Notes: generated by a model not told the origin, from the sequence alone. DNA of 64,000 bases from a bacterium (GCA_963621885.1 CAVFFT010000004.1:12-64011), one strand, 5' to 3'; numbered from the stretch's first letter, positions 4,691 through 60,983 are shown. A program made the numbers and translations.

Positions 4691-5653
4691 CTATTTCCCC
4701 TGTTCGCGATGCATCTTCTCGTAGTAAGCAATGACCTGCAGCTCATAGCTTTTTCGGGCGCTCTTCGCGGTGGTATCCAGAATGAGGCCACAGCCTTCAG
4801 CCAGGAGGCCGCAGAAAACGAGTCCGGTCGCGAGCATGGCGGAGGGGAAGCGTTCAACGAGACCGGTGCGCGAGAAGTCGACGACGACCGGAATACCGAC
4901 GATAAGGCCAAGCGCTATGAACACAATTGCGATGATGCTAAAGAGCGCGAGCGGTCGGTAGTCCTTGAACAGCGATGCGATCATTCTCAGAACGGCTATT
5001 CCGTCTGAGAAGGTGTTGAGCTTTGAAACGCTGCCCTCCGGACGGTCGCGATAGGCGATGGGAATCTGCGCGATGCGCCAACGCTTGTCGGCTGCGTGGA
5101 TGGACATTTCCGTCTCGATTTCGAAGCCGGCCGATTCAACCGGGAGGGTCTTGGCGAAAATGCGGCTGAATGCGCGATAGCCGGTCATGACATCGTGATA
5201 GTCGTACCCGTAGATGCGCTTGATCAGGCTACGAACAAGGTCGTTTCCAAAACCATGGAACGCGCGGGTGTTCTCTTCGCCGTAGCTGCCATTGGAAAGT
5301 CGGTCGCCAACGGTCATGTCCGCTTCGTCATTCAGAATGGGCTCGACAAGCGCACGAGCGGCCTCCGCGGGGTAGGTGTCGTCACCGTCAACAAGGATGT
5401 AGGCATCGGCATCGATGTCGCGAATCATCTGGCGAACGACGTTTCCCTTGCCTTGGCGCGTTTCGCGGCGCACGATCGCGCCATGCTCCCGCGCGATTTC
5501 GGATGTCGCGTCAGATGAGTTGTTGTCGTAGACATAGATGTCCGCTTCGGGCAGCTCACGATGGAAATCGTCAACCACCTTCGCGATGGTCAGAGCCTCG
5601 TTGTAGCAGGGTATAAGTACCGCAACGGAGGCGCCTTCCTTTATGTCACTCAT
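4691..5653 (-). CDS. Family 2 glycosyltransferase with C-terminal TM helices (polyprenol-phosphate sugar transferase-like)
   Basis: Track ORF 4691..5662. Motifs VLIPCYNE, YVYDNNSSD, VDGDDTY, plus C-terminal hydrophobic helices. ATG at 5653 is preceded by AAAGGTGG plus 5 nt. Confidence 0.85.
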   Translation of the reverse strand: MSDIKEGASVAVLIPCYNEALTIAKVVDDFHRELPEADIYVYDNNSSDATSEIAREHGAIVRRETRQGKGNVVRQMIRDIDADAYILVDGDDTYPAEAARALVEPILNDEADMTVGDRLSNGSYGEENTRAFHGFGNDLVRSLIKRIYGYDYHDVMTGYRAFSRIFAKTLPVESAGFEIETEMSIHAADKRWRIAQIPIAYRDRPEGSVSKLNTFSDGIAVLRMIASLFKDYRPLALFSIIAIVFIALGLIVGIPVVVDFSRTGLVERFPSAMLATGLVFCGLLAEGCGLILDTTAKSARKSYELQVIAYYEKMHREQGK

Positions 5654-59471: not shown

Positions 59472-59548
59472 CGGGATGTGGCGCAGTCTGGTAGCGCGCT
59501 TGCTTTGGGAGCAAGATGTCGCAGGTTCGAATCCTGTCATCCCGACCA
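59472..59548 (+). tRNA. tRNA-Pro (anticodon TGG)
   Basis: Acceptor CGGGATG/CATCCCG, anticodon arm CTTGC-TTTGGGA-GCAAG, T-arm GCAGG-TTCGAAT-CCTGT, encoded CCA. Confidence 0.9.
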
Positions 59549-59646: not shown

Positions 59647-59775
59647 TTACCCATCTGTCGGTGACTTAGCGAGCAAGTCCTTGGCGGTGCCGTTGAGTGC
59701 ATTGTAGTCCCTTTCGGGCGCGGCGTTCCCTTCTGCGGTCTGGTCAACTGCGGGTGCGGCGTTATCTTCTGCCAC
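59647..59775 (-). CDS. Candidate 42-aa hydrophilic small protein
   Basis: GTG preceded by GGAAGGAGGG plus AACC. Product (M)AEDNAAPAVDQTAEGNAAPERDYNALNGTAKDLLAKSPTDG. Followed by the shared terminator. It is the 3' part of track ORF 59647..59967, whose upstream part overlaps tRNA-Leu. Confidence 0.35.
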   Translation of the reverse strand: MAEDNAAPAVDQTAEGNAAPERDYNALNGTAKDLLAKSPTDG

Positions 59776-59792
59776 GGTTCCCTCCTTCCCGT

Positions 59793-59865
59793 GCCCGTGC
59801 GGGCGCGGCTCGTGCCCCGTGCGGGGCGCTTTTATGTATGAAAAAGGGCGCCCGTGCGGACGCCC
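59793..59865 (-). repeat. Three GC-rich hairpins sharing a CCGCACGG core (GCAC tetraloop on the minus strand); the distal one is the tRNA-Leu terminator
   Basis: Plus strand gcccgtgcgggc (59793-59804), gccccgtgcggggc (59814-59827) and gggcgcccgtgcggacgccc (59846-59865). The last is followed by TTTTT on the minus strand. Confidence 0.5.
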
Positions 59866-59886
59866 TGAATCATAGGTTTTGGATGC

Positions 59887-59973
59887 TGGTCGGGGCGGCG
59901 GGAATCGAACCCGCATGGGCTTGCGCCCGCGTGCTCCTGAGACACGCGCGTCTGCCTGTTCCGCCACGCCCCG
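59887..59973 (-). tRNA. tRNA-Leu (anticodon CAG)
   Basis: Reverse complement reads CGGGGCG-TG-GCGGAACAGGCAGACGC..., anticodon loop CTCAGGA, long variable arm GGGCGCAAGCCCAT, T-arm GCGGG-TTCGATT-CCCGC, then CGCCCCG-A-CCA. Confidence 0.85.
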
Positions 59974-59991
59974 ATGTGGTAAAATAAATCT

Positions 59992-60038
59992 GTGCCAAGA
60001 AAAGCCTGGGTTAGTCGCCGGGGCAAATTCCTTGGCAC
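59992..60038. terminator. Hairpin terminator downstream of the toxin-like remnant
   Basis: gtgccaag-N31-cttggcac, flanked by T-runs on both strands. Confidence 0.5.
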
Positions 60039-60042
60039 TTTT

Positions 60043-60840
60043 TTATTTCTTGTAAAGTCTTGCAGACCCATCCCTTATTACCATGATCCTTTTTGCTCGC
60101 GGGTCTTCAAGCATGTCAACCACTGCGGACTCGATGGATTCGGCGTTCCCGTTTACCGACAGGTCGACTATCACGCTGTCGGACTGCAAGAGGCCATCGC
60201 CCACCCGCGACCTTGCCTTTGTCGGATTCTCGGTTGAGATTCGCTTAATCTCCCATAGCTCACCATCAAGCCTGATGTCTGGAGTGTGGTCACCCTGTCT
60301 GATTGATGGAACAAGGAATTCAATCTCATGCCCTTTGCGAGATAGCCAGGATGCGAGCTGGATTTCTTTGCCTTCAGGTTTCGCCCCATGCTGGCAAATG
60401 ATTACCCCTTCAAGCTCATAGGTTTTCACGAACTGCTCGAAGACCCCCGCGTAATCGCGTGCGATTTTCCACTCGTGCCATACCTTTGGTACTGACTGGT
60501 TGATAGCTTCGGCTTCAGCCTTAACGCCCGCTATCGGGAGATCATAGAAGCCATCCTCGTAACGAACCATGGACTCAATGCGTTTCCATGTCCTATACGC
60601 AACCATCGGGTCATGCCCTTCCACCAACTCCGCCATCGGGTGTCCTCGAAGCCCGGCACGACCTTGCAGTCGCAGCCGCGATGGAAGTGCATGAATTCGC
60701 CTGCCGTCTTGCGCGAATGGTAGACCGCGCCGCGCGATGCGAGCATCAGGCAGAACACGCAGTTCTCGCGTCCCGTCGTCACGCGGGCGAACCCCACGCC
60801 CTTCTTGCGGTCGCGCTTGGCGTAGGATCCAGATAAACAA
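60043..60840 (-). pseudogene. 5'-truncated, frameshifted remnant: phage MuF-type head-morphogenesis C-terminal tail fused to a PD-(D/E)xK nuclease-like (toxin-type) domain
   Basis: Track frame 60531..60977 reads ...GFARVTTGRENCVFCLMLASRGAVYHSRKTAGEFMHFHRGCDCKVVPGFEDT. Track frame 60043..60840 continues PMAELVEGHDPMVAYRTWKR... and ends with ...GDHTPDIRLDGELWEIKR.... The switch lies near 60637-60645. The region is visibly less GC-rich. An intact sub-ORF from ATG 60636 (197 aa) remains. Confidence 0.5.
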
Positions 60841-60869
60841 AAAGCCCCGAACCTATTGGCCCGGGGCTT
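60836..60869 (-). terminator. Terminator of tRNA-Asn
   Basis: Minus strand AGCCCCG-N12-CGGGGCT followed by TTTTTGTTT. Confidence 0.65.
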
Positions 60870-60877
60870 GTAATTAC

Positions 60878-60952
60878 TGGCTCCTCGGGTAGGACTCGAA
60901 CCTACAACCCTCCGGTTAACAGCCGGATGCTCTACCATTGAGCTACCGAGGA
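60878..60952 (-). tRNA. tRNA-Asn (anticodon GTT)
   Basis: Reverse complement reads TCCTCGG-TA-GCTCAATGGTAGAGC-A-TCCGG-CTGTTAA-CCGGA..., T-arm GTAGG-TTCGAGT-CCTAC, then CCGAGGA-G-CCA. Confidence 0.9.
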
Positions 60953-60983
60953 ATGTCAACGGTTTTTCAACACGCAAGTGATT

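Follow-up and report, generated by a model that had tools for sequence, protein, structure and literature searches.

A window of 64,000 nucleotides (nt) from a bacterial genome (GCA_963621885.1, CAVFFT010000004.1:12-64011), on one 64-kb contig of the 92-contig, 92% complete draft of an Eggerthellaceae genome (Coriobacteriia), was analyzed with respect to a toxin-like gene on its minus strand, which a preliminary description had assigned to a transfer RNA (tRNA) hotspot. Taken as a whole, the segment from ~59688 to ~60828 is very probably an internal piece, 1.14 kb long and colinear, from the head module of a Coriobacteriia siphophage, in which the toxin gene, of the VG15-CdiA_C type, is dead, its start codon and first ~137 codons being lost and one further nucleotide being deleted. 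The fragment is located in the convergent spacer between the host tRNA-Asn and tRNA-Pro genes and comprises the last ~260 of ~400 VG15-CdiA_C codons, a hairpin, a phage tRNA-Leu(CAG) unit that appears intact, and the first ~28 codons of a scaffold gene.

The toxin gene is read in two overlapping minus-strand frames (60043..60840 and 60531..60977), the peptides of which had been correctly quoted in the preliminary description. Frame A (60639..60828) is the 5′-truncated C-terminal piece of a VG15 (MuF-like) protein and reads ...YAKRDRKKGVGFARVTTGRENCVFCLMLASRG...FHRGCDCKVVPGFEDT until it ends in ...GFEDT; frame B (60043..60639), one base out of register, starts with PMAELVEGHDP and runs for 198 codons through a helical linker and a CdiA_C-type PD-(D/E)xK nuclease to a TAA stop codon at 60045-60043. 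The two frames are joined, as proposed earlier, by a 1-nt shift: the switch occurs at 60639-60642, within a frameshift site at 60636..60644 where GAC-GAC-CCG-ATG has become GAC-AC-CCG-ATG (GACGACCCG to GACACCCG) by the loss of one G relative to intact homologues. Intact relatives of 400 amino acids (aa) read FEDDPMAELVEGHDP at the switch and ...GFEDDPMAELVEGHDP... across the junction; judged against them, the shift is a 1-nt deletion in the window copy. Furthermore, contigs of related phages from three public metagenome runs (Logan) each carry one extra base at 60641/60642, which restores E-D-D-P; as candidates for the source reads, the runs share at most 14% of words, and they contain related phages, not the window's own genome. 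The gene would be truncated even if the deletion were an error, because ~137 N-terminal codons are gone regardless. The 5′ end had been described as cut off by the tRNA-Asn terminator, and DNA homology to an intact gene does begin at ~60828, 14 nt past that 12-bp terminator (60842-60869, minus strand, terminator scan, outside the remnant), which corresponds to approximately residue 137 of the 400-aa homologue. Downstream of the shift, an ATG at 60636 opens the intact 197-aa open reading frame (ORF) reported earlier, which bears the DIRLDGELWEIKR motif and contains the nuclease domain.

The identity of the upstream piece is based on profile and sequence matches. Frame A matches Pfam VG15 (PF25310) with 91.1 bits (cut-off 26, E 1.4e-25, profile positions 136-193 of 212) and PHROG 193 (E 2.6e-22), and in tblastn this piece finds the corresponding gene in ~1,300 actinophage records, where it is labelled minor capsid, MuF-like, or 'capsid maturation protease and toxin fusion'. 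These matches confirm the CxFC...HxxCDC...VEGHDP segment as the C-terminus of a MuF-like head protein, but not its specific assignment to Pfam Phage_Mu_F (PF04233), which matches neither window piece at E ≤ 10; the family is instead the sister family VG15, named after gp15 of mycobacteriophage L5. Of the profile collections searched, Pfam thus supports both VG15 and CdiA_C, and NCBIfam returned nothing for either piece. SPP1 gp7 and L5 gp15 are likewise minor head proteins encoded beside the portal gene, with a zinc-like CxxC...HxxCxC motif near the C-terminus; unlike the window gene product, those proteins are complete, and many end without a toxin extension or bear one of another type (VIP2 ADP-ribosyltransferase, EndoU). 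The segment had also been described as less rich in guanine plus cytosine (GC) than its surroundings, which holds for the toxin half (0.52, versus 0.593 for the genome) but not for the VG15 piece (0.656). In every relative, the toxin half is lower in GC, by 5-18 points, than the VG15 half and the remaining phage locus; the low GC content is a family-wide property and no sign of decay.

A search for the intact ancestor led to an uninterrupted 400-codon homologue, reading ...FHRGCSCKVVPGFEDDPMAELVEGHDP..., on a 2.4-3-kb contig (locus L004) of a genome from another family of the same order (G027). Downstream of this gene lie a hairpin, a tRNA, and an ORF starting TVAEENAAPETDQTAD...DYKALYE. The window carries corresponding elements on the same strand, namely a hairpin (59992..60038), a tRNA-Leu(CAG) with an encoded CCA end (59887..59973), an intrinsic terminator (59845..59866, terminator scan) with a homologous stretch in G027, and, at 59688..59844 by alignment with G027, the GCAC-looped hairpins of the phage spacer, a strong Shine-Dalgarno sequence, and the beginning (5′ stub) of the scaffold gene (GTG at 59775). 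DNA identity between the window and G027 amounts to 77% over 59691-60008. Beyond tRNA-Leu, the window reads VAEDNAAPAVDQTAEGNAAPERDYNAL, which matches the start of the G027 scaffold ORF; this 42-codon ORF is the 5′ stub of a head scaffolding gene, its frame entering host DNA and reaching a stop at 59647, and its full-length homologues are head scaffolding proteins (PHROGs 9857 and 233). Hairpins of the CCGCACGG type recur in the same spacer of L048, L051, and L055. The tRNA-Leu(CAG) (ARAGORN; Rfam tRNA, 49 bits) shares 84-90% identity with phage copies at the same position and 70% with the copy native to the host (contig C79), and because of this phage-type identity and its colinear position in phage loci it belongs to the remnant. 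The gene had been described as wedged between tRNA-Leu and tRNA-Asn; the tRNA-Asn flank stands, and tRNA-Leu is to be withdrawn as a host landmark.

The same arrangement extends to other phage loci. The order portal, VG15-CdiA_C, hairpin, optional tRNA, and scaffold, followed by the major capsid gene where the locus reaches it, is found in 10 intact loci, among them L012, L015, L049, L050, L051, L052, and L055, of which L049 and L050 are two phage records in IMG/VR that are 96-97% complete; in L015, a terminase gene is located ahead of the portal gene. L070 likewise shows the portal, VG15, and scaffold order of L012, L015, L051, L052, and L055. An intact phage would accordingly be ordered as terminase (seen in L015), portal, VG15-CdiA_C, hairpin, optional tRNA, scaffold, and major capsid. 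An exhaustive HMMER search collected 158 representative clusters, the best of which are proteins of ~400 aa, with the query aligning to residues ~200-400; the cluster architectures combine VG15 or Phage_Mu_F with CdiA_C, some with an intein and some fused to a portal, and the relatives P0010 and P0043, which have the same C-terminal domain, do carry Phage_Mu_F. P0017 (L052 1501-3684) is a VG15-CdiA_C protein of 727 aa interrupted by an intein, and P0043 and P0066 combine portal, MuF, and CdiA_C in single polypeptides of 871-884 aa. A single-protein search of IMG/VR returned nothing; the 26-sequence family alignment was too divergent for a pattern search, and a closer alignment of eight sequences gave 2 + 2 loci. 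When the two halves were compared with 50,697 GenBank phages by tblastn, the nuclease half had no match and the VG15 piece alone matched.

At the site of the remnant, the right flank is the host tRNA-Asn(GTT) (60878-60952, minus strand), which is also conserved in relatives of the same family. On the left, homology to G027 stops at ~59688-59690, 350 bp beyond the extent given in the first reading, and the true left flank is the host tRNA-Pro(TGG) (59472..59548, plus strand), convergent with tRNA-Asn. The tRNA-Leu was considered as a marker of the integration site and rejected, phage sequence being colinear on both its sides. The assembled genome, complete to 92%, contains no portal gene, HK97-type capsid gene, second VG15, second CdiA_C, or second hairpin. 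Hence, the proposal that the locus is the last remnant of a prophage or toxin cassette at a tRNA hotspot is upheld as regards a phage remnant, but tRNA-Leu is no mark of integration. It is highly improbable that the segment is an assembly artefact, i.e., a piece of a phage contig misjoined between the tRNA genes of a possibly metagenome-assembled draft, with the frameshift as a consensus error: the draft does consist of 92 contigs and is 92% complete, and related phages circulate in comparable samples, but the junctions lie outside repeats and tRNAs, on either side the DNA is unique host sequence of one 64-kb contig, two misjoins 1.1 kb apart would be needed to make a chimera, and the deletion is not in a homopolymer run. 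Moreover, other genomes contain comparable remnants, including one with orthologous copies in two species.

Family and predicted fold support the downstream part as a PD-(D/E)xK toxin-type nuclease of the CdiA_C kind, in agreement with the PD...ExK signature reported earlier for a nuclease-like toxin. Pfam CdiA_C (PF18451) matches residues 119-191 of frame B with 32.1 bits (cut-off 26.6, E 1.3e-7), and the profile of the 26-sequence alignment has 4g6v_A as its sole significant match in the Protein Data Bank (PDB) (E 4.4e-7). The AlphaFold (AF2) model of frame B has a predicted local distance difference test (pLDDT) value of 94.1 and a predicted template-modeling score (pTM) of 0.88; in Foldseek, it retrieves 4g6v_A (E 2.6e-5, probability 1.00, template-modeling (TM) score of 0.63 on the target, root-mean-square deviation of 3.3, 111 columns) and no other structure at E ≤ 0.001. 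Residues E92, D121, K132, Q152, and D159 are invariant across the 26-sequence alignment, most members of which have E or D at position 130; the window copy retains all five residues and E/D130. The domain resembles CdiA-CT(II) of Burkholderia pseudomallei 1026b (4G6V) in its PD-(D/E)xK-like core, with an acidic residue and a lysine arranged as D...E-x-K. By contrast, the two domains are 20% identical, the window-type domain sits on a phage head protein and that of 4G6V on a type V secretion filament, the window domain is preceded by a 75-residue helical linker that has no known relative, and no CdiI-like partner adjoins the window gene. Besides the toxins of contact-dependent growth inhibition (CDI), CdiA_C also occurs in clusters with a type VII secretion system (T7SS) signal.

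The preservation of this domain could also be expected if the nuclease had been domesticated, i.e., if the frameshift had made a new gene and the 197-aa ORF were expressed on its own as a toxin or defence nuclease. We consider this unlikely. All invariant residues are kept, the fold is confidently predicted, a GAGGA is located 6 nt upstream of the ATG at 60636, and stand-alone homologues of the nuclease core, of 130-180 aa, are common in the class; these homologues, however, are without the 75-aa linker that the 197-aa ORF carries. A protein atlas lists exactly this ORF as a called protein, but a database gene call is no evidence of expression. The region between the tRNA-Asn terminator and the ATG (60640-60870) contains no sigma-70-like promoter, and because of this and the strong terminator directly upstream, the nuclease ORF is probably silent or nearly so, as judged from the sequence. 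The sister remnants in other genomes are decaying, through an in-frame TGA (L017) or a deletion (L018/L058), and no partner gene is present. As a pseudogene fragment, the ORF is a dead representative of a known kind of gene, the MuF polymorphic toxins (Jamet et al., 2017), and its annotation as a 197-aa 'hypothetical protein' should be changed to a fragment of a phage VG15-CdiA_C toxin pseudogene, that of tRNA-Leu(CAG) to phage-derived, and that of the 42-codon ORF to a scaffold-gene stub.

The C-termini of VG15 proteins are exchangeable, which is consistent with the earlier suggestion of a MuF end fused to polymorphic toxin domains. The N-terminal halves are 50-75% identical among relatives, and identity collapses directly after VEG(H/Y)DP, where CdiA_C, DUF6883, Ntox50, or unnamed C-termini follow. 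No small immunity ORF is found downstream of the window gene. The preliminary description had remarked on this absence; it is real, and 8 of the 10 intact CdiA_C-type loci also have only the hairpin, with or without a tRNA, and no ORF between the toxin stop and the scaffold start. The two exceptions are L052, with a 64-aa membrane ORF, and L054, with a 122-aa ORF. The absence of an immunity gene is the native architecture of the CdiA_C type and no product of decay. VG15 genes with other C-termini, the N-terminal halves of which are 65-75% identical, are followed by small ORFs: an 83-aa ORF after Ntox50 (L059), a 54-aa ORF after DUF6883, and ORFs of 114 and 81 aa after the unnamed C-terminus. 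Jamet et al. (2017) (BMC Biol 15:75; PMC5576092) list the Bp1026b-type tRNase domain (cd13442) among MuF toxin domains and report that 89% of MuF toxins have a small ORF downstream; the CdiA_C type is an exception to this rule. The genes share with the MuF polymorphic toxins of that study a head-morphogenesis N-domain right after the portal and an exchangeable C-terminal toxin, and in the relatives of the window gene the N-domain is conserved and the C-termini and GC content shift after a fixed junction. Unlike in that study, the N-domain here is the actinophage VG15 (PF25310), and what the window carries is a truncated pseudogene. A considerable number of MuF-type toxins in phages of gut Coriobacteriia thus have no immunity ORF of the sort that normally defines polymorphic toxin loci.

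In an intact phage, the VG15 part would place the protein in the capsid, if SPP1 gp7 and the MuF-toxin model (Jamet et al., 2017) are a guide. From there, the nuclease at the C-terminus would be carried into the next host together with the phage DNA and might cut tRNA or another nucleic acid there, as the CdiA-CT tRNase of 4G6V does. The CdiA_C type would need no adjacent immunity gene because it is a late gene of the virion module. The puzzle of a toxin without immunity is thereby resolved for the window: what is left there is a truncated pseudogene downstream of a terminator, and intact relatives are without an immunity ORF as well.

Further remnants came from a search of species-representative genomes in which the hairpin served as query, so that their shared content is partly a matter of ascertainment. 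In a Coriobacteriia metagenome-assembled genome, L017 (5280-6005) is 5′-truncated at NCTLCLMLA and contains an in-frame TGA. L018 (6365-6650) and L058 (1320-1545) are orthologous in two Slackia-like species and join, by deletion, a VG15 piece to the last codons and the hairpin; because it is orthologous between two species, this remnant is old. L061 (3849-4840), in a genome of the same genus as the window, has two hairpins and a phage-type tRNA-Leu in scrambled order. It is improbable that the window piece is an orphan toxin cassette that serves as a recombination reservoir like CDI/Rhs orphans and is swappable by incoming phages between the VEGHDP junction and the hairpin. The family is polymorphic exactly after VEGHDP, the hairpin also follows a cassette of Ntox50 plus a small ORF, the GC step of the toxin half recurs in every relative, and three independent chromosomal remnants begin within ~40 codons of one another in the conserved pre-toxin region, all of which would suit a cassette. 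However, the use of the hairpin as query biases what the remnants share, no full-length VG15 gene is present nearby or anywhere in the genome, the tRNA and scaffold stub aboard are superfluous for a toxin cassette, and the frameshift and stops oppose maintenance. CDI/Rhs orphan modules are similarly 5′-truncated, with part of the conserved pre-toxin region and an intact-looking toxin domain; unlike the window piece, they are located downstream of a full-length gene and keep an immunity gene, and the window piece stands alone, is frameshifted, and carries phage tRNA and scaffold sequence.

Several points weigh against the reading of the window as a decayed phage head module with a dead toxin gene. 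At the edges of the remnant, no attachment-site (att) repeats, copies of tRNA 3′ ends, or integrase were found, short repeats being at chance level only. With the fragment thus free of any flanking prophage scar, the decay of a complete prophage in situ is a presumption, and the piece may instead have been captured directly as phage DNA. No empty site is demonstrable in same-genus genomes, where the tRNAs alone match and the neighbourhoods are non-syntenic; in G001, different genes surround tRNA-Asn, and the G005 contig stops at the tRNA. The three metagenome runs that bear on the frameshift hold only relatives. As the 197-aa ORF has every family-invariant residue and the GAGGA 6 nt before its ATG, residual expression is possible. 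Finally, virion delivery and tRNase activity are proposed by analogy. As to the ends of the two near-complete phage records, neither a host tRNA nor end repeats were found there.

The 3′ end of the gene is marked by a three-helix hairpin of 46-47 nt, which in the window (59992..60038, minus strand) scores 62.8 bits with covariance model R1. The preliminary description had recognized only a terminator after the stop codon; instead, this is a conserved, covarying element specific to the 3′ end of the gene, starting 0-6 nt past the stop codon of VG15-CdiA_C genes. The hairpin is ~90% identical between phages with proteins that are 45-63% identical and is recognizable at 30% protein identity, and each of 18 copies is predicted to fold alone into the same three-helix structure with a 7-8-nt loop (-16 to -30 kcal/mol). 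Both-side changes occur in 13 of 15 pairs in an alignment fitted to the covariance model, and pairing is found in 86% of cells, versus 75% in shuffles (none of 500 reaching the observed value) and 31-70% in shifted registers, these counts being somewhat biased by the model fitting; MAFFT alone mis-registered the outer stem. Each of the two near-complete phage records has a single copy (L049 3114-3161; L050 3104-3150), and tandem pairs are present in L012 (11225-11270 and 11294-11339) and L047 (3104-3149 and 3172-3217). Further copies are located in L011 (1399-1444), L015 (4610-4655), L051 (2682-2727), L052 (3687-3733), L054 (2717-2756), and L055 (2715-2760). The hairpin also follows the Ntox50 cassette with its small ORF; behind three of the other VG15 C-termini, no copy was found.

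In Rfam 15, the hairpin (59992-60038) has no match at E ≤ 10; only three tRNAs score in the scan, apart from a 19-bit MicX match (gathering score 75) on the opposite strand that spans the whole region from tRNA-Leu to the stop codon. The exact hairpin pattern has no match in IMG/VR. Readings as an HDV-like/theta, twister, pistol, or hammerhead ribozyme, as a T-loop or anticodon mimic, and as a sigma-54 or -35/-10 element were considered and set aside, Rfam giving no support and the topology not fitting by eye. On a conservative reading, the hairpin separates low-copy from high-copy late genes as a signal for processing or termination, and it may be a new phage RNA element. T7-type phage RNase III hairpins and the 'I-shaped' actinobacterial terminators without a U-tract are similar in having a stem of ~46 nt with internal loops, a position between low- and high-copy late genes, and no clean U-run after it; unlike in these elements, the loop and internal-loop sequences here are conserved across phages whose proteins share only 30-60% identity.

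Downstream of the hairpin, aligned flanks of its copies reveal a conserved -10-like box (consensus nATTAT-ACCAC; 59974..59991, minus strand), which may act as a promoter for the tRNA. A tRNA comes next after the hairpin and this box in 9 of 15 distinct loci, Leu-CAG being commonest and the others being Trp-CCA, Ser-GCT, or Gln-CTG plus Leu-CAG; the slot is occupied at L015 4672-4745, L047 3260-3348, L049 3183-3355, L050 3171-3256, L051 2747-2831, L052 3754-3839, and L060 63-147. In the two near-complete phage genomes, of 32-33 kb, the slot tRNAs are the sole tRNAs. In the window, the tRNA-Leu unit keeps both the -10-like box and the terminator (59866-59845); the phage tRNA is most likely the piece that still functions, if any does, and may still be made. 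Decaying forms are also seen: in G027 (L004 1553-1637), an 85-nt Leu-type tRNA has a CAT anticodon and mismatched acceptor and anticodon stems, and in L019 (~4775-4810), as in L048, the tRNA is reduced to an acceptor-stem mini-hairpin ending in GACCA.

A conserved, covarying hairpin with no Rfam match, often followed by a phage tRNA, is thus found after CdiA_C-type genes, which is worth keeping together with the immunity-less architecture. One could speculate, at long odds, that in this phage lineage a toxin without a protein immunity is coupled to the hairpin, as a cis RNA decoy, antidote, or processing signal, and to the tRNA slot (Leu, Trp, Ser, Gln) as a source of toxin-resistant tRNA that would replace the host tRNA destroyed by the injected nuclease, and that the remnant persists, other than by chance, as a hairpin-tRNA unit with a captured extra tRNA-Leu(CAG) kept by the host. 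If the hairpin or the tRNA were functionally tied to the nuclease, virion-delivered toxins and phage tRNAs, which are now studied apart, would be linked; failing such a tie, the hairpin can still serve as a clean marker of the phage lineage and of its remnants in host genomes.

Three further loci are recorded here. The contig end at L005 (G005:C76) stops directly after the rpoD-linked tRNA-Asn, which hints at variable or repeated DNA behind that tRNA in this genome too. In another genome of the same genus, L062 (3886-5325, G006:C5) contains, next to a host tRNA cluster, a distantly related VG15 gene (27% identity); a phage-type tRNA-Leu(CAG) comes after it, with no detectable hairpin. Furthermore, on a 162-kb contig, L068 (1801-2955) encodes a full-length VG15 with a divergent, D...E-x-K-like C-terminus, located among small ORFs by a tyrosine integrase and beside host genes, with no portal or capsid gene; this locus may be a minimal island or satellite, not a prophage.

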